IMG/VR virus record: IMGVR_UViG_3300032038_000021
Location: 1-64,000 of that record
Strand: one strand, 5' to 3'
DNA: 64,000 nt
DNA from: a virus
Lineage: Duplodnaviria > Caudoviricetes
The first letter of the stretch is position 1. Each line of letters opens with the position of its first letter. Position numbers and translations under genes: made by a program. The notes under the pieces were generated by a model, which saw only the letters and a list, made by a program, of their open reading frames with translations, was not told the DNA's origin and did not search any database. This document shows positions 3,535 through 61,242 of this stretch, piece after piece.

Positions 3535-3655
3535 TATTTAATATACCTCCTATATAGTTATAGTATATTATTATAATAAAGTGAAGATATAAGAAATATT
3601 CACATTGCAATAAATGACATCTGTAGAGTCTCATATTATGGAGGTTGATATAAAT

Positions 3656-4971: not shown

Positions 4972-5313
4972 TTAAATAGTATAATTAAATCCATTAATAA
5001 TATAATATTCACCAGCACTTATAGTTACACTTGGCGTTGCATCAACAATACATGATTTTGTACCTTCTTGTAATCTATGGCAAAATTGTTTATTTCCATT
5101 ATTTTTTATTACTGAAAAATATGTAGAAGTAGCAAATGGATTTGGTATATTGAAATCTAATAATTTTAAATTAACTGCTATATTATTTGCCTGTATTTCT
5201 ACATATCCAGAGAAAAATATTAATTTATTAATACCATATACATATATTACAAAAGTTTTTAATGCTGCAGTATTAACTACGAAGTCATAGGTTACTATAC
5301 TATTATCATCATC
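4972..5313 (-). other. silent tail-fibre-tip cassette c1 (DDDNSIV...)
   Basis: 114-codon open frame starting at TGATGAT core, no RBS/ATG; beta-rich. Confidence 0.75.
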
Positions 5314-5641
5314 AATCGCCTATTGGCTCATAACTATATAATCTATATTTACCCCATTGAGGTACAGATATAGTAACATAATTCGTTGTTTTATTTACAG
5401 TAATAGATAAAGTAGAAATATTACCGTCTAATATCAAACTACCATTTGCTGATTTATCCCCACCTGTAATATAGAACAGTCCAATACCAGCTATACTATT
5501 AAAATTACCAAATAAATAAAATGCTTGTTTAAATATCATAGGTGGTTTAAATGTTATAGATGTTGAACCATTGTTGGTATCGAACGCTTTACAATAAAGT
5601 GTAACTCCATTTATTCTATTGGATATCTCTTGAGCTTCATC
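5312..5641 (-). other. silent cassette c2 (DEAQEIS...)
   Basis: 110-codon frame from TGATGAA core; its stop is the TGA of the c1 core. Confidence 0.75.
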
Positions 5642-5644
5642 AGG

Positions 5645-6072
5645 TCTGTTTTTACCAAATATTCTACATATATTATAAAAAAGAAATCTGGATGATATAA
5701 GAGTATCATAGAAGATAATCCAGATTTCTTTATAAGATATCAGAGCATTATATTACGATAATACTCTAATGTCTTTATGATCAAGGTTGTCAGGTTTAAC
5801 GGGGAAATAATCGTTTAAGAACCTGACAACTTCTGTCGAAAACATATTGTTAGGATTCTGTGATATAGAATCTTTAGTAATGTTTCTGGAGACAATATTA
5901 TGCAGCAATGCTAATATTGTCTCTTTTGACAGATTGTAAGTGCCAAGATTCATATATTATACCTCCTTTCTGAGTATTTCTTCTATACTCTTATATCAGA
6001 GGTATAATATATGAATCAAAATAGTAACTTTTACAAATATAATCCCAGTAGGATTATTTCCTACTGGGATTA
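5645..6072 (-). repeat. ~420-bp small-gene module, copy 1
   Basis: Flanks similar to 7690-8117 and 54260-54688. Confidence 0.85.
5753..5953 (-). CDS. 66-aa MNLG-family small protein, copy 1
   Basis: AAGGAGG RBS; paralogs at 7798 and 54367. Confidence 0.8.
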   Translation of the reverse strand: MNLGTYNLSKETILALLHNIVSRNITKDSISQNPNNMFSTEVVRFLNDYFPVKPDNLDHKDIRVLS

Positions 6073-6130
6073 TATTTTTTATTTGAAATTTTTAACTCCA
6101 CGTTAATACTGTCCAATCGTGCAATCTATC

Positions 6131-6307
6131 TCATATATTGATTATATTTCTGGATATTAATACGATAAGAATTATTAATAGTAAATATGCTATAATAACA
6201 CTCTCTATATATTTAGATCTTTTATGATGTATAGATTTATAAATAAATGATGCTATAAATAATAAAATTACTAGTATCACTAATACCACCAATAATACAT
6301 TAAGCAT
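6131..6307 (-). CDS. small two-TM membrane protein (58 aa)
   Basis: Manual translation MLNVLLVVLVIL...; GGAGG RBS. Confidence 0.55.
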   Translation of the reverse strand: MLNVLLVVLVILVILLFIASFIYKSIHHKRSKYIESVIIAYLLLIILIVLISRNIINI

Positions 6308-6412
6308 ATATTAGTCCTCCTTTAATAATTAGTAATAGTAGTAGTAATATATTATATTTATAACTTTAAAATAATCTGTAAATATAGTTTTACCCTAAAG
6401 GAGGTACTAATC

Positions 6413-6988
6413 ATGGTTGGTCGTTGGAATGTAGATGTAAAGATGGGGATATATCCGCAGAAGGTTGCTACTGCTCTTGCTGGTCTTGGTGAAAAGCTTA
6501 CCGGAGCAGAATATACTCCGATTGCTTATATCGGTACTCAGGAAGTTAATGGTATTAACCACGCTATTTTAGCAGAGCAGCTTCTTACTACTGGTAAGGA
6601 TACTAAGAATATCGTTCTTCTTATCTTTAACGAAAAGGGAATGAATTGTGATTTGATTGCTATCGAAAGAGTAGTATCTGGTGGTGGAGCTCTTGGTGGA
6701 GTCAATATTGAAGTCCGTACTCAGATCCCGGAAGAAGCTCAGAAGGCTTATGATGCTTCCTTTGAAGGATATGTTGGTGGAGATTTCAAGCCGGTAATTT
6801 ATCTTGGTACTCAGATTACTAAGGGTGTAAATTATCTGTTTGGCGTAGAGTGTGATCCTGTTGTAAAGGATCCTCATAAGGAATTCTATATTATTTCTGT
6901 AAATAAGCTTACTGGTAAGGTTGCTTTTAAGCAGATTCTTTCGGATGATTTTGATACACATCCTTTTGGGTATGCATTTACTTGGTAA
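6413..6988 (+). CDS. uncharacterised two-repeat protein, paralog of 53132-53722
   Basis: Internal repeat P(I/V)xY(I/L)GTQxxxG(I/V)N; strong RBS. Confidence 0.8.
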   Translation: MVGRWNVDVKMGIYPQKVATALAGLGEKLTGAEYTPIAYIGTQEVNGINHAILAEQLLTTGKDTKNIVLLIFNEKGMNCDLIAIERVVSGGGALGGVNIEVRTQIPEEAQKAYDASFEGYVGGDFKPVIYLGTQITKGVNYLFGVECDPVVKDPHKEFYIISVNKLTGKVAFKQILSDDFDTHPFGYAFTW

Positions 6989-7083
6989 TATAAAACAATT
7001 ATAATTTACCCATAGGGATAAAACCCTATGGGTATTTTTATTGAATAACTATATTAGTAGAAAATCGACTAAAATTGGAGATT

Positions 7084-7383
7084 TTACACCAATTCAATAT
7101 CACTTGGATACAAACTAAGAAAAGAAAATGACCAATAGGGTAAATTTACTGTATATACAAATTTATTAACTTCTGATAAATTAAACGATCCAGTTGTCCC
7201 TGATTTCGTTATCTCGCGAATATTTTCTCTACAATAAAAACAAATATAAAAATTTGCACCTCCAGTATGTGATATTAATATTATACCTACCAAACCACTA
7301 TCATATCTACTGATTACAGTTATTTTTTTGGAATTAGCTTCATAAATAGAATAAAATCTTTTACCTATATTATTCAGATCATC
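7084..7383 (-). other. silent cassette c3 (DDLNNIGK...)
   Basis: 100-codon frame from TGATGAT core. Confidence 0.75.
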
Positions 7384-7403
7384 AAAAGGTTTTAAATTAT
7401 ACA

Positions 7404-7670
7404 TTAATTACTATCAGATGATTTCTTCCATGATTTATCTAATCTTCTAGCCCAAATATCTCCATATTGACCTATTAATAATTGCATTAGATACATTGGC
7501 TCAATACTTCTCCCTAAAACGAATAAAACTCCCCAAGGTGAAGTATTTGGAGAATTTGTTAAACCGGTAGTTGCATAATAAATACCGATTGCTGTTATAG
7601 TATTTAGATCAACATCAGTCAATACATCTTTATATGTAAAATTAATAAGTTTTGAATTATTCAAATCATC
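7404..7670 (-). other. silent cassette c4, pyocin-knob-like fibre tip (DDLNNSK...)
   Basis: DLN...GIY...NSP...WGVLFV...Q...IWAR...W pattern. Confidence 0.75.
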
Positions 7671-7797
7671 AATCGTTTATATTTTTATTATATATTCTAC
7701 ATATATTATAAAAAAGAAACTTAGATAATATAAGAGTATCATAGAAGATAATCTAAGTTTCTTTATATAATGATATTAAATCATTATCATATTAGCC

Positions 7798-7998
7798 CTA
7801 TGATAATACCATAATATCATTATGTGTAATATTATCTGGTTTGTGTTTTAAATATGTTTTAGCAAACCTGATGGCTTCACGGGAGAATTCATTATTTGAA
7901 TTCTCCTGTAAGCTATCGGTGGTAATATTACCATCGACAATACCGTGCATAATTGCAAGCATTGTTTCTTTAGGTAAATAAAAGGTACCTAAATTCAT
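7798..7998 (-). CDS. 66-aa MNLG-family small protein, copy 2
   Basis: Paralog of 5753-5953 with the same flanking module. Confidence 0.8.
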   Translation of the reverse strand: MNLGTFYLPKETMLAIMHGIVDGNITTDSLQENSNNEFSREAIRFAKTYLKHKPDNITHNDIMVLS

Positions 7999-46790: not shown

Positions 46791-48038
46791 ATGAAAGGAT
46801 TAGAGATAATGGATAATCTTACTTTAGAAACAAAGATGCCTATTATTCATGAGCTGACAAAAGCTTGTGAATTTTTAAAGAGTGTTGTAGATTCTGTAAA
46901 TATTAGCGATGAGAATTTTAAAGATAATTGGAATGAAATTAATGAGATTCTTAATAGATTATTTCCCGATAAACAATGCTTACATGTAAGCGTAACGTTA
47001 AATACTGATAAGGTTTGCTTTAGTGTTATAGTAAACCCAGTAATTAGTAATATAGATCTTATGGATATTTTACTGAATGATAGTGAAATGTCTATAGATA
47101 AGTATATGGTAGAAATAGATTCTAAAATTGTATCAGCTTTATCTGCAGATGATTTAGCAATGTATATTATCCATGATATAGATGCTATTACAAGTCCTTA
47201 TGCTGTTACTAGAGTAAGAGCATTTATGGATATATTAATGGCAAATCAGGAAGATAATATAGATCTTAAGAATAGTATTAATTATAGTAATATTCTCATA
47301 TATGGTATTAAATATACTATGAGAAAATTAACCAATTTATTACATTATAACGACGAGGAGGAAAAATCTTGGCCTCGCTTAGCAGATATACGGGCTAATA
47401 TCAGAAACGCTGTTCCTCAGATTATGAGTGATCAGACTCAACCAGATCTGAGCCTTCTACAGTGGTGTTTATTAGTTTATAAGAACTTAGATATAGAATA
47501 TAAGGATGCTATAGAGGTTCTTACGAATGCGAAAGCTGTTACTGGATCTGAATTAGATATATCTGAAATTAATAAATTGATTAAATCTCTTAAAAGAGCT
47601 TCTAGTGAATTAATTACAGAAAGTTCTGTATATGAGAATATTAAGAATAATACCAACTCTACAGCTATTATAAAAGAACAATATCTTGCAGAGAAATTTA
47701 GTCTGTTTAAGAATCTTAAGAAGAATGGATTAAGATCAATAGAAGATGATTTATATGAATATAGATTAAGAACTAAGAATTGTACAGAACAATCTGACGC
47801 AATTTATATTCTGAGATGCATTAATACTAGATTATCTATATTAGATGATTATCTTGCTAATGAAGATATTACTGATTATGAAAGACAACACTGGCAGGAT
47901 GTAGCAGATCAATATAGAAATCTTAGAATAGAATTAGGAAGTAAGAAGTTTAATACAAATTCTGTCAGTAAGAACTTCAATAATTTCTTAAATATAGATT
48001 ATGATGCTCTTGATAGATTAGATAAGAATACATATTAA
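46791..48038 (+). CDS. putative virion protein
   Basis: Late motif at 46734; ITES and LAE sites. Confidence 0.55.
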   Translation: MKGLEIMDNLTLETKMPIIHELTKACEFLKSVVDSVNISDENFKDNWNEINEILNRLFPDKQCLHVSVTLNTDKVCFSVIVNPVISNIDLMDILLNDSEMSIDKYMVEIDSKIVSALSADDLAMYIIHDIDAITSPYAVTRVRAFMDILMANQEDNIDLKNSINYSNILIYGIKYTMRKLTNLLHYNDEEEKSWPRLADIRANIRNAVPQIMSDQTQPDLSLLQWCLLVYKNLDIEYKDAIEVLTNAKAVTGSELDISEINKLIKSLKRASSELITESSVYENIKNNTNSTAIIKEQYLAEKFSLFKNLKKNGLRSIEDDLYEYRLRTKNCTEQSDAIYILRCINTRLSILDDYLANEDITDYERQHWQDVADQYRNLRIELGSKKFNTNSVSKNFNNFLNIDYDALDRLDKNTY

Positions 48039-48083: not shown

Positions 48084-49781
48084 TTATTTGGTTTCATAAT
48101 AGCTCTCAAGGCTATTCTTGATCACGTTTCCTTCCGAGTCGAAGTTAAACTTTCTAACCTCAACTGAGAAGTATTCTGGCTTCACGTTGATTATCGTCGA
48201 TACGATGTTTATAAATAACTCTTTATAATCTGCAATAGATTTACATACAATAGCAGCAGAAGTCTTCCTTGCAGGGTTATGAGCATTCTCGTTACAAACG
48301 ATAATATACAGGCAGTTAGTGCTCTGCTCTATATCTTTCATTGTACTGCATTTATATCTATAGATATAATCACCAAACGTTCTATATATTGCAGACACTC
48401 CCACACCCACTTCTCTATAAGTAGGATATTTATTGACACTATAGGGCTGCACATTATATTTTCTAGTATCATTATTATAGTGCAAGCAACAAAGATTCAC
48501 TTTAAGTTCCTCACAGGCTTTAATAAACGATACAAGAGGGCTCTGAAGACCCGTACAATAAAGATTAACTGATTTGTTTGCTCTACCTTCAGAATCGAAC
48601 CTCAGATATTTCTTGAGGAAATCCTTACATATCTGAAGCTGCTTATCATAATCAAACATAGTCTCTTTGTCGAGACCATCTTCAAATACTCCTTTAACAG
48701 CAGGAGTAGAATGTCTTCCATCTACTAATACACATTCAAACACCGGAGATGCAGAAGTAATTCTGTTAATATTCTTATTATGCAGAATACTCCGCGTATA
48801 CATACCAGGTATACCAGGTTTTATATATGACTCTTCGATGATTTCAGTTTTAGCTTTCTCAACAATGGTATCAACAACAGGTTCTTCTGTTGTAACTTCT
48901 ACTGTATTTACTGTAGGTGCCGGTATTTCTTTTTCCGGCTCACGAATAGGGTCCTGAACCTTTTCTTCTACAGCAACAACTTCTTCTTTCTTTACAGCTG
49001 TTGTGCTGCTTTTATTATTAGAGGAAGCTTTATTTTTATTATTCTGTAGCTTGAGCCTCCTTGCCTTAGTTTTCTTTTTCACTTCCTCATCCTCCTCGTT
49101 CGGCCTGTTAATATCATTCTTCTTTTTCACGTTACTTACTGTATTCTGACTCACATTGGCAAGTTCAGCAATCTCGTACTGTGTTAATGATGTGGTTTTA
49201 AGATCGTTGATAATCCGATCAACAATCTCCTTCGGTATCTTATTTGAAGGAGAATAGCAGGCGTAGAAATTATGATCCATCTTTACATTTGTATATTCCT
49301 TCATATAAGAAATAAGCGACACTATAGATACAAAATATTTTTCTGCAAGTTTACTCAATTCAAATCTGGTAATATATCTAGTACCGTCAATTTCAGCAGT
49401 AGCAGCCTTCTCAATCTTATCCGCTATAAACAGCTTCTCGTCATCGGTGAAACGCTTCTTCTTATCCTGATCTTCTTTGGTACGAGTCCAGACAAATTTT
49501 GGTTCTACGTCGTTGTTTTTTACAACAGAATGAGGTTCTTCTTTTATTATCATATATTCATTTCCCATTGAATTTGCAGTTTCCACCGGCTGCTGTGTTT
49601 TGATAGAATTCTTCAACGCAATAATCCTACCTTTGTTTCTTTTGCTTATGGTTAATACCTGGGATATATCCACCCCATATTTCTTCGCCATATTTTTTAA
49701 CGAAGATAAACTGTTGTTATCAGACTCTGCGAGTGCCGATATGATACAATCTTGCAAACTCTTTGTCATTTCCTTGTACAT
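48084..49781 (-). CDS. multidomain HTH protein with Rossmann/CARF-like module
   Basis: HTH LTQYEIAELANVSQNTVSNV; GRH...LYCTGL...LHYN module. Confidence 0.55.
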   Translation of the reverse strand: MYKEMTKSLQDCIISALAESDNNSLSSLKNMAKKYGVDISQVLTISKRNKGRIIALKNSIKTQQPVETANSMGNEYMIIKEEPHSVVKNNDVEPKFVWTRTKEDQDKKKRFTDDEKLFIADKIEKAATAEIDGTRYITRFELSKLAEKYFVSIVSLISYMKEYTNVKMDHNFYACYSPSNKIPKEIVDRIINDLKTTSLTQYEIAELANVSQNTVSNVKKKNDINRPNEEDEEVKKKTKARRLKLQNNKNKASSNNKSSTTAVKKEEVVAVEEKVQDPIREPEKEIPAPTVNTVEVTTEEPVVDTIVEKAKTEIIEESYIKPGIPGMYTRSILHNKNINRITSASPVFECVLVDGRHSTPAVKGVFEDGLDKETMFDYDKQLQICKDFLKKYLRFDSEGRANKSVNLYCTGLQSPLVSFIKACEELKVNLCCLHYNNDTRKYNVQPYSVNKYPTYREVGVGVSAIYRTFGDYIYRYKCSTMKDIEQSTNCLYIIVCNENAHNPARKTSAAIVCKSIADYKELFINIVSTIINVKPEYFSVEVRKFNFDSEGNVIKNSLESYYETK

Positions 49782-50016: not shown

Positions 50017-50331
50017 TTATCTTCCATATACGATAACACGAAGTAGTGTATTTCCACTTTCCATATAATACCTTACAAGCGAATTATTAAAAAATATATA
50101 TAGAACCGCAATAATTGTACTGGTGTCATCTATTACACCTAAATAACATGGTTTACCAATTATATATCTGCTAGTATATATAATTCCTCCACCAAATGGT
50201 TGACCGCTATTATCTCTACCATACAAAACCATAATATCTGATATATTGTCAGGAATAGTAACATCAACAGGTGTTCGAGAACTTGTAGTATTATCGTTAA
50301 TAACGATAAATTGTTTGTTTATTTTTTCATC
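50017..50331 (-). other. silent cassette c5 (DEKINK...)
   Basis: 105-codon frame from TGATGAA core. Confidence 0.75.
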
Positions 50332-50371
50332 ATCTTCTAAATTTATATTATAAATAAGTTTTAGTTGTTAA

Positions 50372-50659
50372 TTATTGAAGAATTTTCCACGAATCCCATG
50401 TTTGAGGATTTCCAACTCTTCGCCTGAACCCTTGTGAATTTCCACCTATAATTAATTGTATTCTGAAAGTATCGAATTGTATAAGTACTCCGTACCATGG
50501 AGAAAATTTAGATGGAAAACTTGTATGAACAAATTCTGTGCTAGATCCTATAGCATAATAACCAACACCTATATCTGTATTATCTATATTACCGGAAAAA
50601 TAACCTCTATTTCTTAACGGATAGCTTGACAATTTACAATAATTATTATTCAAATCATC
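50372..50659 (-). other. silent cassette c6, pyocin-knob-like (DDLNNNY...)
   Basis: 96 codons from core; WYGVLI..IQL...RR....WDSWK. Confidence 0.75.
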
Positions 50660-50678
50660 AATCGGTTGTAAAATTATA

Positions 50679-50963
50679 TTATGTTTTAGCAAGTACGTAC
50701 CAACTAGTAAAACTATTATTAAGTCTATATCTAAGCACAGTTTGATTAGTATATATTTGTATTTGTATTCCATAGTCTAATGTTCTACGATATGATATGA
50801 TAAAATGAATATTACCTTTTAAATGAGCATCAGTTTCATATTGACCGTGACTAAAGGAAATTGATCCAGTAGGTTGATTATTAAATAGATCGGCGCATGA
50901 ATATGATTCATTTAATAATATAGGTGAAAATGTACATTTACTACGAAACTGTGTAGCTTCATC
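50679..50963 (-). other. silent cassette c7 (DEATQF...)
   Basis: 95-codon frame from core, absent from ORF track; ends FTSWYVLAKT. Confidence 0.75.
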
Positions 50964-50976
50964 AATCGATTAAAAA

Positions 50977-51276
50977 TTATAATTCTTTTACAGGCTGCCA
51001 AGTGCCACTAATTTTTGTTTGATAAAGTAATTTACTAGTATTATATCCAAAAACTAAACCAGCAGCATAATCACTAGTTGCAAATTTTTGCACTATACAA
51101 GTAAAATTTCCATATACAAATATTATACCTATATGTATTTTATTATCGTTATCTATACTATCTATAGCTGTAGATATAACATCTTTGATTTGATTAGTAT
51201 TTTTATAACTTAAATAAAACGAATTACCAATATAACTAGTTATTTTATTTAATTTCTCAATAGGACCATTTTCATC
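50977..51276 (-). other. silent cassette c8 (DENGPI...)
   Basis: 100-codon frame from core; ends SGTWQPVKEL. Confidence 0.75.
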
Positions 51277-51433
51277 AAAACAATCGGCTCTAGGGTTAAT
51301 TCCCTAGAGCCGTTAAAATTGCTAAAAATAATCATATATTATATTTTAAATAAATAATAGGAAACTGGATTAAATTATAGAAAGGTGGTGATTATATAAG
51401 GATAAAAGAAATAGGAAATAGACAAGGAGGTGA

Positions 51434-51607
51434 ATGAGATTGATTTATCTTAATAAAGATCAAATAGATCAAGTTGTCCAGATTGCAAAGTCGATACGAC
51501 CTGATCTATTTCCTGATGGCAACCATATCATTGGGAGATCTTATAAAGATTTATTTGAAGTTTCTAATCTTTACAGAACTATCTGTAAAGATTTAGGATA
51601 CAGATAA
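51434..51607 (+). CDS. 57-aa protein with complementary 5'/3' flanks
   Basis: AAGGAGG RBS, MRLIYLNKDQIDQVV...; early motif at 51334. Confidence 0.6.
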   Translation: MRLIYLNKDQIDQVVQIAKSIRPDLFPDGNHIIGRSYKDLFEVSNLYRTICKDLGYR

Positions 51608-51778
51608 TAAATCACAAAAACCCGTAGTAACAATCCAATCTTTTATCCTAATCTATTTCCTATTATTTATTTGTAAAAAGAAAAGTAAATATTAAATATT
51701 TACTTTTCTTTTTTATCTGTATAATAATTTATAATTACCTCTTTATATTTTATAGTTTTCTGATGCTTAGAATCTTAA

Positions 51779-52138
51779 TCATATTGATGCTGATATTGAT
51801 TGTATTGTATTTGGTACTTGCCCATATATAATACCTAACCAATGTGTATATTGAATGTTTGCTGTGATCTTTATAGTTTTATTTGTAATTGTAGCTGTAG
51901 GGGTGGGTGGATTGTTACCACTATCACCACCACCAATAAATATAATAGTCGGATTATTAGATCCAGAAAAGAAACATAAATACATATTAGCATTTAATAC
52001 TAATAATATTCCACCATAACAAGCATTAAAATCCCCTACAGTAATATTTACATATTTTTTATTTATATATGAAAATATTATAGATTTTCAGAAAAAAGTA
52101 GTATATGATAATTGATTTTTAATCTGTGTATTTTCATC
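51779..52138 (-). pseudogene. cassette c9 (DENTQIK...) with in-frame TGA at codon 17
   Basis: Frame from core continuous except TGA at 52090-52088. Confidence 0.65.
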
Positions 52139-52190
52139 ATAAGTCAGTGAAATATAAGTAGATTTGGTAACTCACTGTATATAAGGAGTC

Positions 52191-52649
52191 TTAGAAGCTA
52201 ATTTTAGCGAGTGGAACCACACCACGACTGAGATCCGTCTTGATGTTGTACAAGATATCCCCACTCTCAAGGACAACATATGCGTTAGAATCGTTATATT
52301 TAGTGCTTGTCCAATATGGAAATCCATTATTTCGCACATATTTATTTATCATATTGGCTTCACTTTGAGTTGGGATTTTACAATTCTCTACCCTAATATC
52401 ACTAGATTTAAGATATAAGACTACTGTCCAAGAACAGTTACAAGCATCAGACCAATTTAAACTATCCTCATTAAGTCCTTTATAATTATATTGTGTATCA
52501 TATTTTCTACTTCCAATTGTAAAGTCAGTTCCCAAAAACCATGCAGCGGATCCGGATCTATAAGCACAAATAAATTGCATAGATCCTTTTTGATTTCCAT
52601 TATATGAACCTCTTACAAATGTACCTACTTTTATATTATTCAAATCATC
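52191..52649 (-). other. silent cassette c10, C-type-lectin-like with DGR-VR-like C-terminus
   Basis: DDLNNIK...YWTST..N..NAYVV...G...GVVP. Confidence 0.7.
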
Positions 52650-52727
52650 AAAAAGTTGTACTTACACCTATATTTCGTATTTGAGTAGCTTCTCATAAAC
52701 TATATTGGAGTTTAATAATATAAAACT

Positions 52728-53048
52728 TTATTGTATTGGATATATTATAGTAAATGCTCCATTTGCCGATGTTGCTGCCGATGCAGCAGAAATCTTGATG
52801 CACCCATATACATCCATAATAACAGTCATATGATTTACACCATAATCACCAAAGTGTCCTTGTGTGCTAAGACCATAGCTTGGGTAATATGCTATTGGCA
52901 TAACATCAACATTCAGTACAGTAGTCCACATAGTAGTTGGTTTCATACTATCACCATCAATCCATACTATATTACTCAGTACGCAATATATAATTGTGCC
53001 TTGATTTGCTGACAATGTTGACCATGGTACTTTGTAATTAAATTCATC
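52728..53048 (-). other. silent cassette c11 (DEFNYK...)
   Basis: 107 codons from core. Confidence 0.75.
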
Positions 53049-53131
53049 ATAAGGTCATTATTTGTATACTATTAATAATATAACTATAAAATAATTACTT
53101 CATAATCTATTTTATAAGGAGGTTTAAACCT

Positions 53132-53722
53132 ATGGGTGTTGGAGCTTGGAACGTAAATGTAGTTACTGGTGGAATGCCTGAGAAGATTGCTACGGCAGTA
53201 TCTAAGGTAAATGAGCAGTTTGTTGGTGCCGAATATACTCCTATTGCTTATGTAGGATCTCAGGTGGTGAATGGAACTAATCATGCAGTTCTTGCTGAAC
53301 AGCTTCTTGTTACTGGTAAGGATCAGAAGAATGTAGTTCTTCTTATCTTTAACGAAAAGGGAATGGATGTAGATCTCGTTGCGATTGAGAGAATCGTTGA
53401 ATCTGGAGAAGCACTCGGCGGTACTGTTGTAGACGTTAAGACCGATATCCCGGAAGATGCTCGGAAGACATTTGATAGAGTGCTTGGTGGATTTGTTGGT
53501 GCTGCGGTTGAGCCGGTAGCTCTTCTTGCAACTCAGGTTGTTAAGGGAGTTAATTACGTTTTTGCTGCGGAGGTAACTCCTGTAGCTGTTACGGCTGGAG
53601 AACCTGTAAAGAAGTTCTGTGTTGTTGTTGTGAATAGTCTTGATAAGAAGGCTAGTTTTGCAGATGTTCTAAAAAGCGGATTGGAAGTTGCTCTTGGTAA
53701 ACCACTTGGTGAATGGCCGTAA
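53132..53722 (+). CDS. uncharacterised two-repeat protein, paralog of 6413-6988
   Basis: Shared GAEYTPIAY, NHA.LAEQLL.TGKD. Confidence 0.8.
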   Translation: MGVGAWNVNVVTGGMPEKIATAVSKVNEQFVGAEYTPIAYVGSQVVNGTNHAVLAEQLLVTGKDQKNVVLLIFNEKGMDVDLVAIERIVESGEALGGTVVDVKTDIPEDARKTFDRVLGGFVGAAVEPVALLATQVVKGVNYVFAAEVTPVAVTAGEPVKKFCVVVVNSLDKKASFADVLKSGLEVALGKPLGEWP

Positions 53723-53793
53723 TTAATAATAATTAGAGGTGTTGCAGATCCCCTAGGGAATAATTCCCTAGGGGATCTTTTTTGTTTTAATTT

Positions 53794-54054
53794 TTATAAT
53801 GATATATAATATATATGATATGTAAAATTTTTATTAATATACGGTGTATTATCTAATCTATTATTAACTATCAATATATATTCTCCACTGGTTTTAATTG
53901 ATAATGAAGAATGTAATAATGCACTATTAGCTTCACATCGTGCAGATAAAACAATATAATTATATATACTATATCCTGTAATACATTCACCTTGTCCGTT
54001 TGTAGTATCTGTTAATACTTTTTTACTAATTGTTTTAAACTTAGAATTTTCATC
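53794..54054 (-). other. silent cassette c12 (DENSKF...)
   Basis: 87 codons from core; resembles c23. Confidence 0.7.
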
Positions 54055-54366
54055 AAAACCTTTAATTATATTTTTCTACAGTCTTCAACTTTTATACTTT
54101 AGTTTTTATATTTAGTATATTCTTAATCTTTTCGAATAGGACAAATCCTTCTTCTATTTTTCTCATAGATGGGTTGGGAGAATTCTTAATCAATTTTTCT
54201 ATTGATTCAGCCCAATCAGATTTCATGATTTCATCTTCTATAAACTCTTATTTCAACTAGGTCTGATTTTACAAAATAGTCTACATATATTATAAAAAAG
54301 AAATCTGGTGTATGAGAGTTGTAATAGAAGATAAACCAGATTTCTTTTTAGATTTAGAATATTATG

Positions 54367-54567
54367 TTATGATAATACTCTAATATCTTTATGTTCAAGG
54401 TTACTGGGTTTCACCTTGAAATAATTACTGAGAAATCTAATAATTTCTTTAGAAAATCTATTATTAGGATTTTCCGAAATCGAGTTTTCAGTAATATCAC
54501 CATCTACAATACTATGCAATAAATACAACATAGTACTTTTGGGCAAATAGTACGAACCTAAATTCAT
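54367..54567 (-). CDS. 66-aa MNLG-family small protein, copy 3
   Basis: Paralog with the same flanking module. Confidence 0.8.
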   Translation of the reverse strand: MNLGSYYLPKSTMLYLLHSIVDGDITENSISENPNNRFSKEIIRFLSNYFKVKPSNLEHKDIRVLS

Positions 54568-54809
54568 ATATTATACCTCCTTTCAATAGTATTTCTTCTA
54601 TAACTCTCATACTAGAGGTATAATATATGAATCAAATTAGTAACTTTTACAAATATAATTCCCAGTAGGTATAATACCTACTGGGATAATTATTCCATAT
54701 ATGTATATATTATTAGTCACTAAGATTAATCCTAGTGACTTACTATTATCTTAATGTTTTTCAATACGATCACATTAAGATAATTTAAAAGAAAGGAAGG
54801 TCTTTTTCT

Positions 54810-55541
54810 GTGGGAAAAAAGCGATATAAATTTAATATTGATTATGAGAAAACAGAAGAGGCTCCAAGAAATTTGGACGGTCAACCATTCTATGATATTA
54901 CTCCCGATGAAGAGCAAAAGATATTCATAGATAGTATATACGATCCAGATACTATAGTGACTTTATGTGATTCTAGAGCTGGTTGCGGTAAAACTTTAAT
55001 TAGTTTAGCTACAGCTAATATTATGGTTAAACGTTATGGATTATATGAAGGAATAGTATACTTAATGTCTCCTTGTGCCGATAAATTAGGTTATCTTCCG
55101 GGTAATTTAGAAGAGAAAACAGCACCTTATATGAGACCTCTTATAGATGCTATGCTTACTATAGGATTGAACCCGGATACTTGTTTAAAATTAGATTCTA
55201 ATATACAAGCATTAAAGAACGGTACTACTTATATAGAATTTTATACAGATACATATATGAGAGGATGTAATCTAGAAAATAAAGTAGTAATTATAGATGA
55301 AGCTCAGAACTTTCCGTTTAACGAATTAAAAAAGGTGTTAACAAGAGTGAAAGATAGCTGTAAAGTTATCATAATTGGGCATCAGGGACAATGTGATTTA
55401 CGAAATAAGAAAGATTCAGGATTTTCCGTATATTTAGACGCGTTTAAAGAAATAATAGACGATAAGCGTGTTAAAATATGCTATCTTAAAACTAACCATA
55501 GAGGATGGTTCAGTAACTTCTGTGATAATGTAAATAGATAA
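54810..55541 (+). CDS. phoH: PhoH family ATPase
   Basis: AGCGKT, LGYLPG, YMRG, IIDEAQN, LTR, Q.DL motifs. Confidence 0.9.
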   Translation: MGKKRYKFNIDYEKTEEAPRNLDGQPFYDITPDEEQKIFIDSIYDPDTIVTLCDSRAGCGKTLISLATANIMVKRYGLYEGIVYLMSPCADKLGYLPGNLEEKTAPYMRPLIDAMLTIGLNPDTCLKLDSNIQALKNGTTYIEFYTDTYMRGCNLENKVVIIDEAQNFPFNELKKVLTRVKDSCKVIIIGHQGQCDLRNKKDSGFSVYLDAFKEIIDDKRVKICYLKTNHRGWFSNFCDNVNR

Positions 55542-55582
55542 ATAACGGAGATAGGGATATATTCCCTATCTCCATATTTTTA

Positions 55583-55948
55583 TCAATATAAAGGTGCAAT
55601 AAATATAGAATACAAATGTTCTGGGCCTGTGTGAACATTACCACAATATGTATGTATTTCTAAACTACTATTTATATATAATGTAAGATCTTGTTGATTA
55701 TCGTTTCTGTTTATCATACAAATTGGATAATCAAAGGTTGTACGATATTGAGGTCTTATTACACTACTTGAATTTATACCACAAACAGTATTGTTTTGAT
55801 ATGTAGCTCCAGATTTCATTTTTATAATAGAAAAGAAAATACCAAGCTTCACTAATGGGTTATAAGTGCAAAACATTTCTGTTGTATTGTCTACCAAATT
55901 GGTATTTACGGAAATAGTAATTGCTGTATGCTTCCACGACTTATCATC
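55583..55948 (-). other. silent cassette c13 (DDKSWK...)
   Basis: 122 codons from core. Confidence 0.75.
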
Positions 55949-55963
55949 AATCGGTTAAAAATT

Positions 55964-56236
55964 TTATTTAATCTGAATCCATTTACTAGTCCAATTACCA
56001 TTACCATATTTAAATCTAAAAAACAAACTAGCAGATTCATATTCTCTAATAGCTATTTGTATTGAATACGTTGATTTCAAAACAATTAATACTCCACCAG
56101 TAAAAACTGTTGGAAAATTATTTCCGGCAGTACCTACACAATACACACCAGAATCATTAATAGAATTAGCATCTATGTTATTTTTTATATCTTGTATAAA
56201 AGGTATTCTAGTTTGTCCAAACTCATCCACATCATC
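55964..56236 (-). other. silent cassette c14, pyocin-knob-like (DDVDEF...)
   Basis: DAN...SGVY...NFP...GVLIV...QIA...FR....W..W. Confidence 0.75.
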
Positions 56237-56263
56237 ATGCGTTATATTAATAATTATATATCA

Positions 56264-56584
56264 TTAGCTTGCCGGTGGTACAAGAGTAAAAATACAAAAA
56301 TTATACTGTTTTCCTACTGTTATTGTAGAATCATGTTTAAAAGTGCTTAACCTATAATCACTAGCCCAAGCTTTTATTAGATTACCATTTGTACTATCCC
56401 TTATTAATATTCCTTGTACCGGAAATTTAAAGTTGTTGGGTAAGTTAAATGTAATTTCGTCTGTATCTGTAGAACTTGCAATAAAAACTCCATATACAAA
56501 TCCAATATATTTAGTATAAACAATTTTAACAACGGTATTAGATCTATTTGTACTAACTGAAGCTGAATGAAAGCTATTATCATC
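56264..56584 (-). other. silent cassette c15 (DDNSFH...)
   Basis: 107-codon frame from core, missed by ORF track. Confidence 0.75.
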
Positions 56585-56610
56585 AATCGTTATAAAAATA
56601 TAAATTTATT

Positions 56611-56916
56611 TTACGATGCTTTATACCAAAGACTAAGTACATTAATACTAGGAATAACTAATTGATTTGAAAAATTATAAAGAAATACACTACCAATGTA
56701 AATATCATTGGTTCTTATTGACACACCTGCACAATGAAATATTATGCCGTTATCTATATAATCACTTGGAATAACTGAAGCATGTATTGGTTTATAATTG
56801 GTTTCGGTTATTGCAGTACAAAATACATTAGCTTTAGAATTTGCCGGTACACCACTAAAGGTATTAGGTATTATTTGAGTTTTCTTTGTTTTATAAATTC
56901 TTATAAAATTTTCATC
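56611..56916 (-). other. silent cassette c16 (DENFIR...)
   Basis: 102 codons from core. Confidence 0.75.
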
Positions 56917-56936
56917 ATCGTTCATTTTGCAAGAAA

Positions 56937-57233
56937 TTACAATTTTTTCCAACTGGACCAAGACGCAAGATCTGAAGTTCCTCTAATAGCAATTCCACCT
57001 CCTTTATACTCTAATGCTAGTTGCGTACAATGTGATCTAATAACTCTAATTACAATTAAATATATGGTTGGATAAGGTATGTTTAAAATAGTACCACCAC
57101 CAGCTGTATTAAGCCAATATATACCAGTTTCAGTTGCTTGATTTATATTTGTTATAGTAGTATAATCTCTTTTATATATTATATTATGATAATTTGCTGC
57201 TTCTTTAACTCTATTTCTAAACGAGCTATCATC
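56937..57233 (-). other. silent cassette c17, pyocin-knob-like (DDSSFR...)
   Basis: 99-codon frame; NIN..TETGIYW...QLA...IR...WSSWKKL. Confidence 0.75.
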
Positions 57234-57325
57234 ATCTTATATTATATTATTTTTAATTTATTATAGCATACACAGTATAATAAATTTTGTAGTTGTATTA
57301 TCTTTTATCATACTGGAGGTTTATT

Positions 57326-57814
57326 ATGCTTGACGTTAAATTAACAGTTTCTGCACCGTGGTTTATTCATTATCGTAAGCTTCAGGCTATGTTCCTTGAA
57401 GATCCTCAGGTAACAGTAAAGTTTGATCAGGATAATTATGAAGTTAAGTTGTATGTAGATGATGCTGATAAGGCAGAAGCTCTTGGAAAGATTCTTAGGA
57501 ATAGTATTGATTATGGTACTATTACCCTTAAGGTTACTGTAATTCCTCCGAATTATACCGATACTAATATTAGAGATCTTTATGAAAAGGCTTTGGAAGG
57601 AAATGGAGCGGTTTCTGATTACCTTACCAATCAGGTTATTGGTAAGAATTATGTAATCTTTAAGAATGAAGTAGTTCAGTACTTTAGCGATGATCTCAGT
57701 AAGGCTAATAGTGTAACTTCTACTTTGTATGAAAATATTGCTGAAGATATATTTATTGATAGAGCTGAAATGGGTTATTCTACTGAGCTTGGAGAGAATG
57801 TGATTAGAGATTAA
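57326..57814 (+). CDS. hypothetical protein (SAPW...F.EDP motif)
   Basis: GGAGG RBS, CACA-N6-TA motif at 57271. Confidence 0.7.
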   Translation: MLDVKLTVSAPWFIHYRKLQAMFLEDPQVTVKFDQDNYEVKLYVDDADKAEALGKILRNSIDYGTITLKVTVIPPNYTDTNIRDLYEKALEGNGAVSDYLTNQVIGKNYVIFKNEVVQYFSDDLSKANSVTSTLYENIAEDIFIDRAEMGYSTELGENVIRD

Positions 57815-57871
57815 TAATATAAAATCCCAGTGAATTATTCACTGGGATTTATTTTTATAATTTATAATATA

Positions 57872-58156
57872 TTATGTAAAATTTATAACAGTCCAGTTGG
57901 TCCAACCACTAGATGAATGTCTCCTTCTATACATTTTTGCATTACGCATAGAGAATGCTATTTGTAGTACATCTTCACCCATTCTTATACTTAATACAGC
58001 AATAAATGATTCGGGAGCATTATTAATATTAGCACCAAAATAGTATAATCCAGAGTTAGCTGTGAGATTATTTAAATCTGTAAATCCTGCATTGCCTACA
58101 TTAGGCAATATTCCAACTGCATTTGTAAGTATTTCTGTCTTAGAATCCAGATCATC
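57872..58156 (-). other. silent cassette c18, pyocin-knob-like (DDLDSK...)
   Basis: DLN...SGLY...NAP...QIA...MYRR....WTNW. Confidence 0.75.
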
Positions 58157-58168
58157 AATCGAGTTTTA

Positions 58169-58369
58169 TTATTTAGTCCAAATTGTATCCCACTCTGTTC
58201 CATTAAACCATCTGTACATTATATTTTTATTATTAAATACAAGCGAATATACATGACTAGTCGAATTCGAATTCAAATGCAAATTTATCCAATGTGTATC
58301 TCCTGTATTATTAGTACCAAATGCTATTTTATTAGTACGATTAAACTCGAATTTCGAGTTTAATTCATC
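58169..58369 (-). other. silent cassette c19 (DELNSK...)
   Basis: 67-codon frame from core, ends WDTIWTK. Confidence 0.7.
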
Positions 58370-58880
58370 ATAAGGCTACAAGTATAATATTCAAAATACG
58401 CGTACATTATTTAAAGTGGTTGTTAATGCTTTTTCGGCTGAAACAAAAAGATGGATTGATACTCACCATATTTTGTCACTGTCATTTCAGTGTCGACTTT
58501 TATATCTATATAACCTGTTTTTCTTGAGTTTTAATTTATAAGATAACAAAAAGACCCATAATACATTTTATTTGGCTGATATTGTTCTCTTGCAAAAAAA
58601 CCCGAATCGTCATAAAAACCCATTACAGAATAACTATCAGCAGATGGAGTAAGATAAACTCTACCTGCTAGTCCTGGAATATATCCTGTTGGAAATTGAA
58701 AAATGCTAATATTGGGACTGGTGCTATAACTAGCTATGTTAGAACCAGTATGTAATGCAAAATGACAAATTCCAATTCTTTTGTATTTTAGACAAACTAA
58801 ATTTAAAGAAGCATTGGTATTAGTATAATTTCCATTTAAAGCTGTTGTTCCTGGTTTGTTTATACTATCATAATCATCAT
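58365..58880. repeat. direct repeat copy A (copy B 60456-60982), bounded by TCATCA cores
   Basis: Visual alignment. Confidence 0.9.
58531..58878 (-). other. silent cassette c20 (DDYDSI...), variant of c24
   Basis: 116 codons; near-duplicate of 60630-60980. Confidence 0.8.
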
Positions 58881-58949
58881 AATCTTCTGAAAATTAATTT
58901 ATTAAATATAAATATAATAATATACTATATTTATAAGGAGGTAAAATAT

Positions 58950-59276
58950 ATGAATTTATCTATTGTACGTACTGTAGATGAGATGTATAACTATATAGAC
59001 ATTATCTTTAATACTGCTTTATCTAATAAAGCTGATAGAATCGTGTTTCTTAATACTTATAATAATCAGTCCAGTTTAAAAGCTAATAGATTTGTTGCAA
59101 ATTATTTGAAACAAGATACTTACGGTAATGAAACTGTAATATCTATGTATGATAATATGTTGGAGATTGATAATATTAATATACTATATAAAGCTATAAA
59201 TAAATTTAAAGAAAAATATAATAATATTCCAATAGAAGTTTGGACTGATTATAGTACCGGTAAAGTGTATTGGTAA
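58950..59276 (+). CDS. hypothetical early protein
   Basis: ATATACTATA at 58920; AAGGAGG RBS. Confidence 0.65.
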   Translation: MNLSIVRTVDEMYNYIDIIFNTALSNKADRIVFLNTYNNQSSLKANRFVANYLKQDTYGNETVISMYDNMLEIDNINILYKAINKFKEKYNNIPIEVWTDYSTGKVYW

Positions 59277-59300
59277 GTTTTATAAATAGGAGAATATAAT

Positions 59301-59618
59301 ATGAGTAATAAATTAGGGGATAAAATATTAAAATTATGTAAACAAAAAGGACTAAAGCAAAGAGATTTAGCAGATAAAATAGGAGTTACTGAAGTCAGTG
59401 TGAGTAGATATATTCGTGGTACTAGAATTCCTAATGCTAATATACTAAAGAAGATGGCTGAAGTATTAGAAGTTAGTGTTGGAGAAATCTTAGGAGAGAA
59501 AGATAAAACAGAAGAAGAGAGTGAGAAATTTGATAGTGCTTATAATACTATAAAAGAAATAAAAGATAAACTTACTGTAGAAGAGAAAATGAAAATAGTA
59601 AGATTATTATTTATATAA
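59301..59618 (+). CDS. XRE-family HTH transcriptional regulator
   Basis: LKQRDLADKIGVTEVSVSRYIRG.R.P. Confidence 0.9.
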   Translation: MSNKLGDKILKLCKQKGLKQRDLADKIGVTEVSVSRYIRGTRIPNANILKKMAEVLEVSVGEILGEKDKTEEESEKFDSAYNTIKEIKDKLTVEEKMKIVRLLFI

Positions 59619-59749
59619 TGATCTTAAGTTGATTTATTGTGAATAATATAAACCCGTAGAGTATTATTACTCTACGGGTAAATAAATCATAATTATCTAT
59701 AATATTATTTATTTTTTAGTTCGGTTCATGATTTTTATCTGTAGAAGGA

Positions 59750-59893
59750 TTAGAGGATGATTTTAGCAAGAAGTACCACACCATGAATGGGACTCGAAAA
59801 GTCAAAAGTGCTGATATATCCTAATTCGGTGACACAATAGGCTTGGGATTCGTTATATCTAGCACTTGTCCAATACGAAAATCCATTATTTCT
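59750..59893 (-). pseudogene. orphan DGR-VR-like fragment (c21), paralog of the c10 C-terminus
   Basis: Gap-free alignment with 52191-52334; no core or RBS of its own. Confidence 0.65.
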
Positions 59894-59904
59894 TAGATAA
59901 ATAT

Positions 59905-60195
59905 TTATTGTGTTTGTCCAAATGCAATAATTTGACAATATACTGTTATTACTGTGCTATAAGAATTATGTACCTTTATCTTACAATAAGTTGATATACT
60001 CTGTAAAATAATAGTATCTATAAATTGTGGATTAATATTTGCTATAGTTGATAATGCTATATAAGGTGTCGATTTAAATTTAGCAGTAGAATAGTTTATA
60101 ATTATTTCATTATAACCATTTGCATTAACTGATTCACTTGCACCACCACTATATATTTTTGGGTTTGAATATTGTTCATTGATAACAGCATCATC
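59905..60195 (-). other. silent cassette c22, H-type-lectin-like (DDAVIN...)
   Basis: SGG..V......I.Y...F...P.IALS...IAFG pattern. Confidence 0.7.
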
Positions 60196-60208
60196 ATCGT
60201 TTTTAATT

Positions 60209-60460
60209 TTATTTATTATAGTATATAAAAGATACTTTAACACGCGTATCTGTCATTTTTTGATTATTATCTAACCTATATACATATATTTCATAATAAC
60301 CAGTATTATTATTTGTTGAGATAATACAATTTAAACCACCCCAATTATACGAATAAGCAGTTAATATATAAGAATTATACATATTAAGATTACTAATACT
60401 TATAACTCCAGTATTTGTATTCGTAACAGTAGAAGCTTTTAAAAAACCAACCAGATCATC
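60209..60460 (-). other. silent cassette c23 (DDLVGF...)
   Basis: 84-codon frame from core. Confidence 0.75.
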
Positions 60461-60629
60461 ATAAGGCTATGAGTATAATATTCAAATACCCGTACAGCAT
60501 TAAAGTAGTTGTTAATGCTTTTCCGACTGAAACAAAAAGATGGATTGATATCAACTCATATTTTGTCACTGTCATTTCAGTGTCGACTTTTATATCTATA
60601 TAACCTGTTTTTCTTGAGTTTTAATTTCT

Positions 60630-60980
60630 TTATACCTCAACAAGATAACAAAAAGACCCATAATAATCATTATTTGGTTTATATTGTTCTCTTGCATAAA
60701 AATTCGCATTATCAAACCAACCCATTACAGAATAACTATCAGTAGATGGAGCAAGATAAACTCTACCTGCTAATGTTGGAATATATCCTGTTGGAAAACT
60801 AAAAATGCTAATATTGGGACTGGTGCTATAACTAGCTATGTTAGAACCAGTATGTAACTTAAAATGACAGATTCCAATTCTTTTGTATTTCACACAAACT
60901 AAATTTAAAGAAGCATTGGTATTAGTATATTTTCCATTTAAAGCTGTTGTTCCTGGTTTGTCTATACTATTATAATCATC
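60630..60980 (-). other. silent cassette c24 (DDYNSI...)
   Basis: 117 codons from core. Confidence 0.8.
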
Positions 60981-61242
60981 ATCTGTCTTTTTAGGCTAAT
61001 ACATATCCTTATACATATAGATAATCCTCTGTATAAAAATATTCCAGTAGGATTCTTCCTACTGGGATTTAATAAATTTAAGACTATTATATTACTTTAT
61101 TTTGTATAGATTTTATCTTCATGATACTATATGATCGATTTGGTCGATTATAATAATGTTTGATTTCCAAAACACTTGTATAATCTTCCTATATTAGTTA
61201 TATTTATATGGGATTTTATTAATTATTTTCTAGGAGGTATCC

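Follow-up and report, generated by a model that had tools for sequence, protein, structure and literature searches.

The window analyzed here, a 64-kb stretch forming the first part of the 118.9-kb IMG/VR virus record IMGVR_UViG_3300032038_000021, contains silent reading frames without start codons that open at the hexamer TGATGA, hereafter the core. These frames are probably spare tail-fibre tips, stored as cassettes and joined to a single fibre gene by recombination at the core. That gene, which we call the acceptor, lies just outside the window. The record (48% complete according to CheckV, GC content 31.5%) encodes a jumbo-phage-type major head protein, a DNA polymerase, NrdD, PhoH and virion proteins. 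The window is a piece of a ~250-kb jumbo phage from cattle or sheep gut, and sequencing runs containing the phage came from the gut of both animals. A 156.7-kb ENA contig, collinear with the record and 99.95-99.995% identical to it, reaches 28 kb past the window start; together, the record and these 28 kb gave 147 kb of this phage (G000) for examination. It was compared to the complete 249.6-kb genome IMGVR_UViG_3300021256_001754 (G001) and to the related jumbo phages G003 (complete), G005 and G006 (201 kb). Among cultured phages, the capsid protein was found to match jumbo phages distantly, e.g., phiR1-37, and the acceptor fibre had no match.

TGATGAW (W being A or T) occurs 24 times in the window, on the minus strand only and confined to positions 5305-7671 and 50326-60981; shuffled versions of the window carry a mean of 37.7 copies on both strands. 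Twenty-three start-less minus-strand frames open at T|GAT|GAW, 19 of them at 50017-60981 and four at 4972-7671, which are exactly the numbers given in the initial annotation. The shared reading frame claimed there also held up: at 22 of the 23 sites frame +1 (T|GAT|GAW) runs without a stop for 66-152 codons, and in the other two frames a stop comes within a few codons. In shuffled array sequence a run of at least 66 open codons arises with a probability of 0.003, and across the whole known set 30 of 31 cassettes are open. The single broken frame in the window is the one named in the initial annotation (c9, site 52139), with an in-frame stop at codon 17 followed by ~100 further open codons. It had also been claimed that the frames lack a ribosome-binding site and a start, and this agrees with our counts. 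A 5-mer Shine-Dalgarno motif was found upstream of 0/27 cassettes compared to 37/67 long open reading frames (ORFs), an in-frame TTG or GTG occurs within the first 15 codons in only six of 27 cassettes, and ATG never does. The heavy reliance of the ordinary genes on Shine-Dalgarno motifs hints at a Firmicute host. Promoter-like matches at the cassettes were not above the shuffle level; TATAAT-like words are common in the cassette trailers. The hexamer alone is conserved in the cassettes, with a weak bias to A at position -7 and to C at -4, and the bases 5' of it fall into precisely the classes described before (CGAT seven times, TTT four, TTA five, AGA/CGA five, and two others). The T at core position 1 is invariant in 58/58 cassettes though it is non-coding there, and the following codon is GAT, never GAC. 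The description of the cassettes as packed head-to-tail stands for 14 inter-cassette gaps of the record, which are at most 26 nt (from a 3-nt overlap to 26 nt), but not for the other gaps, which measure 637-1527 nt and contain plus-strand genes (PhoH, a helix-turn-helix (HTH) protein and a cystatin-like protein). In total, 31 silent cassettes are known for the phage, 23 in the window, four after the acceptor and four beyond the window start, in addition to the expressed tip. The features of the window are as follows; cassettes are named by the position at which they open.

60630..60981, minus strand: silent cassette of 116 codons, paralogue of cassette 58879
60209..60461, minus strand: silent cassette of 83 codons
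59905..60196, minus strand: silent cassette of 96 codons
59301..59618, plus strand: HTH_3 regulator gene inside the array
58531..58879, minus strand: silent cassette of 115 codons, 96.5% identical to the expressed tip of P0004 (sibling sample)
58169..58370, minus strand: silent cassette of 66 codons
57872..58157, minus strand: silent cassette of 94 codons, modelled (pLDDT 79), fold like pyocin R1/R2 and phage fibre knobs
56937..57234, minus strand: silent cassette of 98 codons
56611..56917, minus strand: silent cassette of 101 codons
56264..56585, minus strand: silent cassette of 106 codons
55964..56237, minus strand: silent cassette of 90 codons
55583..55949, minus strand: silent cassette of 121 codons
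54810..55541, plus strand: PhoH-like gene inside the array (cargo, not a cassette)
53794..54055, minus strand: silent cassette of 86 codons
52728..53049, minus strand: silent cassette of 106 codons
52191..52650, minus strand: silent cassette of 152 codons, distant relative of the expressed tips of P0020 and P0023
51780..52139 (end approximate), minus strand: broken cassette, stop at codon 17, then ~100 open codons
50977..51277, minus strand: silent cassette of 99 codons, core-to-core paralogue of the cassette at record position 64688
50679..50964, minus strand: silent cassette of 94 codons
50372..50660, minus strand: silent cassette of 95 codons
50017..50332, minus strand: silent cassette of 104 codons, the last of the main array
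7404..7671, minus strand: silent cassette of 88 codons, second cluster
7084..7384, minus strand: silent cassette of 99 codons, second cluster
5312..5642, minus strand: silent cassette of 109 codons, its TGA stop being the first triplet of the next core
4972..5314, minus strand: silent cassette of 113 codons, with the doubled core TGATGATGA

The fibre gene with TGATGAW in the D-D/E frame that the initial annotation had expected elsewhere in the genome was found 2 kb past the window end. The acceptor (record 65985-66626, minus strand) has a start codon and encodes 213 aa. Its core, an in-frame TGATGAT at 66276, was placed 130 codons into the gene; the constant N-terminal part is put at 117 aa, with the junction reading ...A-T-L-N|D-D-L. 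The product starts with the motif KPRRG...GE...GDG...LPY, as in Mtd_N-type fibre N-termini. The acceptor itself has no match in Pfam and only a weak tail match among PHROGs (7.8e-4); its homologues P0079 and P0093 match Pfam PF18454 (Mtd_N), and the neighbouring gene of 289 aa matches the same family (3.5e-17) and many tail-fibre PHROGs. In the AlphaFold model residues 1-123 are confident, and a long helix (residues 95-123) stops at the junction; this helix region has a weak coiled-coil-like similarity to PDB entries in a profile search. The modelled tip had a predicted local distance difference test score (pLDDT) below 50 and was not used. Four cassettes follow directly after the acceptor, at 65965, 65381, 65087 and 64688. 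The last of these units is closed by TAATGA instead of TGATGA (record 64373-64378), a decayed core at the array boundary. The acceptor word ACTAAATGATGA (ACTAAA|TGATGA, read L-N-D-D/E) is invariant in four diverged lineages, including its Leu codon CTA, whereas neighbouring synonymous sites differ among them.

A search with the acceptor returned 95 homologues; with a full HMMER scan the number rose to 784 representatives. Nearly all homologues align over residues 1-~120 only and then continue into unrelated tips (median length 114 aa), with L[NS]D[DE] at the junction in 68 of the 127 proteins having the N-terminal motif. At the nucleotide level, metagenome contig L026 is 99.89% identical to the phage over 1830 bp; the identity ends at the last base of TGATGA, and another tip lies beyond. 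Contig L027, 90% identical to this phage, ends its similarity at the same point, and L027 and L060, obtained from sibling samples, share 99.4% identity as far as the core and show no relationship beyond it. Tips that are silent in one genome were also found expressed in another. In P0004, which comes from a sibling ENA sample, the same N-terminus carries the tip resembling silent cassette 58879. The tip that L060 expresses aligns from core to core with the second cassette of L061, which is silent, and the expressed tip of this phage occurs elsewhere as a stand-alone 92-aa ORF (P0227). The acceptor, the breakpoints at the core and the P0004 tip together bear out the central proposal of the initial annotation, namely swappable tips, a constant fibre gene and recombination at TGATGA. 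Three of the four residues in which the P0004 tip differs from cassette 58879 (58534-58878) match the paralogous cassette 60981 (60633-60980), which suggests either exchange between paralogous cassettes or shared ancestral states. A word-based search for fused long homologues of silent cassette 58157 found none, which is weak evidence. An alignment scan of IMG/VR returned G001 and three unrelated or system-free loci, a DNA pattern scan returned only G001 and two unrelated phages, and a single-protein scan returned nothing.

Duplications within the phage are also bounded by cores (58880-58365 and 60982-60456; 51277-50959 and 64688-64373). The 160-nt non-coding trailer within the first pair (58371-58530 and 60462-60629, minus strand) is 91.3% identical between copies compared to 88.8% for the whole duplicated unit; it folds no better than shuffled sequences (z = 0.28) and had no Rfam match.

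Outside the cassette and acceptor junctions TGATGA is absent from both strands of the 147 kb. The record holds 29 copies, all on the minus strand, consisting of 27 cassette heads, the acceptor core and one overlapping copy in TGATGATGA. The 28 kb of 99.95%-identical ENA contig add four further cassettes and no other TGATGA, and all 33 known sites of the phage are co-oriented. The hexamer is present at 1.8-2.0 copies per kb on both strands of G003, G005 and G006, from which more than 200 copies are predicted in this phage. The absence has left a signature in codon choice. For Asp preceding Asp or Glu, the GAT:GAC ratio is 1:39 after codons ending in T (NNT) compared to 232:66 after other codons (NNV; Fisher 1e-21), and in G001 the corresponding ratios are 3:104 and 430:131 (Fisher 5e-51). 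No such context effect was seen in G005 or G006. The arrangement xTG ATG Axx does not occur, and all eight internal Met-Met pairs precede a codon not beginning with A. As TGATGA is missing alike in sense, antisense and intergenic positions, the signal is read on double-stranded DNA, and selection appears to have removed it from the rest of the genome. A different avoidance is seen in G005 and G006, where TACGTA is absent compared to 39 and 68 copies expected; this is of the restriction-type palindrome kind, unlike the TGATGA pattern here.

The same arrangement was found in relatives. G001 has a fibre N-terminus 60% identical to that of the acceptor, and its 28 TGATGA sites comprise one acceptor, about 20 heads of start-less frames and others. 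Twenty-six sites are co-oriented with the acceptor and two are inverted, one of these heading a cassette. Two non-cassette copies form part of a 10-bp inverted repeat, GATGATGAAT ... ATTCATCATC, ~31 nt apart in a GC-rich stretch at 143170-143235 of G001. The G001 cassettes lie in several clusters that are partly syntenic with those of this phage (beside PhoH, an HTH protein and an endolysin-like gene), and no cassette is common to G000 and G001 at 50% identity or above. Judged from these two genomes, cassette content turns over at conserved locations. Locus L025, from a 296-kb contig, carries an acceptor and 13 cassettes within 20 kb, all co-oriented, and on a 23-kb scaffold (scaffold_3451) the single TGATGA is that of its acceptor. 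G003 was found to have neither cassettes nor an Xer-like recombinase. G006 has a fibre-tip system of its own, in which a palindromic AT-rich 16-mer TTATTAATATTAATAA is followed by TGATTTAG, read N-D-L, and opens frames of 180-380 codons that have no start and lie on both strands. The sites recorded are 508+, 9335-, 9995-/10008+, 15886+, 17360-, 18280-, 18911-/18924+, 198820- and 200304-; some of them are back to back, and the system looks like an inversion shufflon.

Eight of the window cassettes form a loose family with 19-29% identity. The model of one of them (57875-58156) resembles the R1 and R2 pyocin fibres 6cl5, 6cl6 and 6ct8 in a Foldseek search of the PDB (template modelling (TM) score 0.57-0.65, E 4e-3 to 1.6e-2). 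It also matches the receptor-binding proteins of phi812 and NF5 and the Mu fibre, with overall TM scores of 0.46-0.65, and has 19 matches in BFVD at E <= 1e-3, the named ones being mostly tail fibres. These moderate scores support a pyocin or phage fibre-knob fold for the modelled cassette, standing for the family of eight, in line with the pyocin-knob-like fold suggested in the initial annotation. The cassettes had no match in Pfam and weak tail matches only among PHROGs.

These observations lead to the following scheme. The constant part of the fibre would consist of a small Mtd_N-type beta domain and a long helix, ending at ACTAAA|TGATGA, after which a receptor-binding tip of ~100 aa would follow. 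A silent cassette, having no promoter, ribosome-binding site or start, would be expressed only once recombined in frame behind the constant part. A core-to-core unit could be excised and inserted at the acceptor core, or it could be swapped by two crossovers at flanking cores. Each cassette would bring its own stop codon, the displaced tip would become the first silent cassette, and TGATGA alone would suffice as the target. If insertion can take place at any TGATGA, this would explain the purge of the hexamer. Since all cores are co-oriented, inversion cannot join cassettes to the acceptor, and the initial annotation was right to set aside inversion shufflons on this ground. Simple deletion cannot join them either, because essential genes lie between the clusters: nrdD, the polymerase and the head genes would be lost with the DNA between the acceptor and a distant cassette. 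Excision and insertion, or cassette exchange at the core, is therefore the most likely reading, and it fits the core-to-core duplicates and the relationship between L060 and L061. We infer a programmed and frequent exchange that works by excision and insertion and is catalysed by the Xer-like tyrosine recombinase of the relatives. A more specific proposal is tentative: the system would be a new class of viral diversity generator, an in-frame integron in which gene-end cassettes travel as core-to-core units and are captured at the 12-bp acceptor word inside the fibre gene. The hexamer would be all that the machinery needs, a specificity loose enough to have forced the phage to erase the word genome-wide, and that machinery could be a retargeted Xer-like enzyme or one still to be recognised.

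Synteny places the missing half of the phage (about 100 kb) opposite the region of G001 in which the only recombinase gene of that genome is found. This gene (G001 222219-223253) encodes an armless Xer-like tyrosine recombinase with intact catalytic residues. It matches Pfam PF00589 (2.5e-35) and PF13495 (SAM-like core-binding) and has no arm-binding domain, and the residues R..K..HxxR..H..Y are invariant in 22 homologues. Xer-type models match it best. It scores 209 against a cut-off of 220 on NCBIfam XerA, which is below the equivalog call, and 74.2 bits against a cut-off of 265 on the integron integrase model TIGR02249. G001 encodes no serine recombinase, Y1 transposase, IS110 transposase or reverse transcriptase (RVT_1). 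A route by reverse transcriptase or a diversity-generating retroelement was rejected, with no RVT_1 match in either G000 or G001. Three further contigs that carry an acceptor also carry a homologue of the G001 recombinase, at a distance of 11 kb in one of them. Phylogenetically, the four acceptor-linked recombinases form one clade (support 100/98), with those of G005 and G006 in the other; this fits an Xer-like enzyme as a shared engine with lineage-specific sites and equally well vertical descent. Going by co-occurrence, the Xer-like tyrosine recombinase of the relatives is the sole candidate enzyme, weakly linked to the system, and may be the one involved.

Several results weigh against programmed exchange by such an enzyme. 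A search for the recombinases suggested in the initial annotation found no tyrosine or serine recombinase, and no reverse transcriptase, in the 147 kb of this phage. The G001 recombinase gene is 137 kb from the acceptor, and G005 and G006, which are rich in TGATGA, carry homologues 51-57% identical (51% in G006). Tyrosine recombinases normally need binding arms of 9-13 bp, and nothing is conserved here outside the hexamer, with trailers down to 0-2 nt. The ratio of non-synonymous to synonymous substitution rates (dN/dS) was 1.0 and 2.8 for two paralogous cassette pairs, so that purifying selection on stored copies is unsupported; the selected trait is an open frame plus change, the pattern that receptor-binding surfaces should show. 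The two assemblies of the phage, from ENA and IMG/VR, are collinear. Finally, homologous exchange between co-infecting relatives would leave the same break, because homology ends at the core.

This last point leads to an explanation without dedicated machinery, in which tips change only over evolutionary time, when related phages infecting the same cell recombine homologously or illegitimately, the arrays merely archive displaced tips or serve as their graveyard, and TGATGA mirrors a conserved N-D-D/E at a domain boundary. Identity would then break at the core as it does wherever homology ends, and the missing recombinase, the dN/dS of at least 1 and the two collinear assemblies, in which no within-population heterogeneity was seen, would be as expected. 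However, protein constraint fails to account for the invariant non-coding T or for GAT never being GAC, and the purge on both strands with its context-dependent choice between GAC and GAT, the duplications bounded core to core and the 30 of 31 open frames also speak against it. Moreover, the cassettes have no common N-terminal homology to guide homologous recombination. We therefore regard this explanation as unlikely, though it is the strongest of the alternatives.

The purge and the single orientation of the hexamer could instead reflect escape from a host Type III-like restriction enzyme that reads TGATGA and needs two head-to-head sites, and would then be unrelated to the tips. The location of 29/29 record sites on one strand is the pattern shown by EcoP15I sites in phage T7, and ordinary avoidance does occur in the relatives, as seen for TACGTA. 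But such an enzyme would do no damage at co-oriented sites, and minus-strand genes have nevertheless been cleared of the hexamer as well (the 1:39 ratio above), and G001 retains two inverted sites. It would also stay unexplained that every kept site heads a start-less fibre tip in frame. Avoidance of this type could add to the strand bias but not explain the same-strand purge, and as a full account it is very unlikely.

Joining at the level of RNA or translation (trans-splicing, a ribozyme, ribosome hopping or a +1 frameshift at UGA), or an unusual start in each cassette, has still less to commend it. UGAUGA does resemble hammerhead and C-box cores as well as a stop/start overlap, and the TATAAT-like words in the trailers are frequent. 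However, assemblies hold contiguous DNA with different tips, the antisense hexamer is purged as well, which points to a double-stranded DNA signal, and a threshold as loose as E 0.1 still gave no Rfam match in the array. A hammerhead needs a C just before the core, where another base stands here, and there is neither a Shine-Dalgarno motif nor an in-frame ATG, with promoter-like matches at the shuffle level. An inversion shufflon of the classical kind (Rin, Min or Gin), with its inverted partners in the unsequenced half of the genome, would have a precedent in the back-to-back sites on both strands of G006, but it is the least credible explanation, given that 26/28 sites in the complete G001 are co-oriented, with one inverted cassette head, and that every known site of this phage is.

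Genes and repeats around the arrays were also recorded. The main array is bordered by a 415-aa protein (46791-48038, plus strand) and a 565-aa protein (48084-49781, minus strand) with an HTH at residues ~180-225. Nothing usable was found for either in Pfam, NCBIfam, PADLOC, a PDB sequence search or Atlas. Homologues lie beside or within cassette clusters of G001 (90079-91254 and 115413-116363); G005 and G006 have no homologue of the 415-aa protein, and G006 has a weak one of the 565-aa protein (24% over 177 aa). A 66-aa ORF is present three times (5753-5953, 7798-7998 and 54367-54567, all minus strand; 58-67% identical) in a 440-nt repeat just upstream of cores. Two paralogous proteins (52% identical) with cystatin-like tandem repeats and QxVxG-type motifs are encoded near the cassette clusters; the cystatin-like and peptidase coordinates are 3614-4477, 6413-6988 and 53132-53722 (all plus strand), and one such gene adjoins a papain-family peptidase C1 gene. 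Both the 66-aa ORFs and the cystatin-like genes are absent from G001 and were ruled out as core machinery. GC-rich terminator-like hairpins are numerous at record 49001-68500 (23 compared to 5.5 expected), many with CCCTAGGG- or CCTACGGG-like stems and several bidirectional, and they flank the plus-strand genes in the array.

A literature search found no description of this TGATGA tip system. Receptor switching in phages is known to occur by point mutation, diversity-generating retroelements and small inversion switches with 2-6 alternatives. About 30 stored, unrelated tips usable without inversion would be a far larger host-range repertoire in one virus, and such a library could explain the persistence of jumbo phages in a diverse rumen community. 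The family is widespread, its constant part being common to the 784 representative proteins. Loss of a 6-bp word across a whole genome, visible in a clean codon-context signature, is a kind of trace that recombination systems rarely leave, and it offers a simple computational handle for finding more such systems. If confirmed, recombination keyed to 6 bp would matter for mechanism and for biotechnology alike.

Of the systems described so far, the Rin shufflon of Bifidobacterium prophages comes closest. In Rin a 168-aa constant N-terminus of the receptor-binding protein is joined in frame to C-terminal segments of ~95-100 aa that have no 5' end of their own, each headed by an 11-bp asymmetric repeat termed rix (Mavrich et al., 2018; PMC6109161). 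Its five segments share one locus, with the recombinase next to them, and are exchanged when DNA between oppositely oriented sites inverts; the enzyme proposed for this is an armless, XerD-like tyrosine recombinase (Mavrich et al., 2018; PMC6109161). The phage system resembles Rin in its constant part, in its start-less ends at a short repeat and in the type of the candidate enzyme of the relatives. It differs in having ~31 co-oriented cassettes in at least four clusters over more than 70 kb, a 6-bp core, no recombinase nearby, and a core word purged genome-wide, a purge that is not reported for rix. Of the features typical of inversion shufflons, in-frame joining at a short repeat is found here, while inverted sites, an adjacent recombinase and a compact locus are not. 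Min of p15B, Gin of Mu and Cin of P1 are serine invertases acting on 26-bp sites in inverted repeat, with an enhancer and 2-6 alternatives. They likewise switch the C-terminus of a phage fibre, and so host range, by recombination inside the fibre gene, but the complete relative G001 has no serine recombinase. The R64 shufflon (Rci/sfx, PilV tips) and vsa of Mycoplasma pulmonis use inversion within one compact locus at sites of 19-34 bp; they share with the phage one constant 5' part and several silent 3' ends, which in their case are joined in frame by a tyrosine recombinase. Orphan arrays of CdiA-CT and Rhs recombine homologously over tens to hundreds of bp, encode toxins with immunity genes and are not known to purge a junction word. 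Their start-less C-terminal modules downstream of a full gene, each beginning at a short conserved peptide motif, are similar to the cassettes, which however encode fibres and not toxins and whose junction word is purged. Integron cassettes are whole genes with their own start and need IntI and a structured attC of 57-141 nt. The phage cassettes resemble them in being promoterless, co-oriented and arranged head-to-tail by one expression site, in their boundary core (7-bp class in integrons) and in their core-to-core duplicates, and the newest cassette would be expected beside the acceptor in both. No IntI was found in the 147 kb of this phage and no structured attC in its trailers, and unlike in integrons the cassettes are in-frame gene ends, the trailers can be unstructured and as short as 0-26 nt, and the G001 enzyme falls far below the integron integrase cut-off (74 versus 265 bits). 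Altogether, the findings suggest an undescribed, non-inverting way for a virus to change what it binds, and by analogy the system would work as a mixture of an inversion shufflon and an integron.

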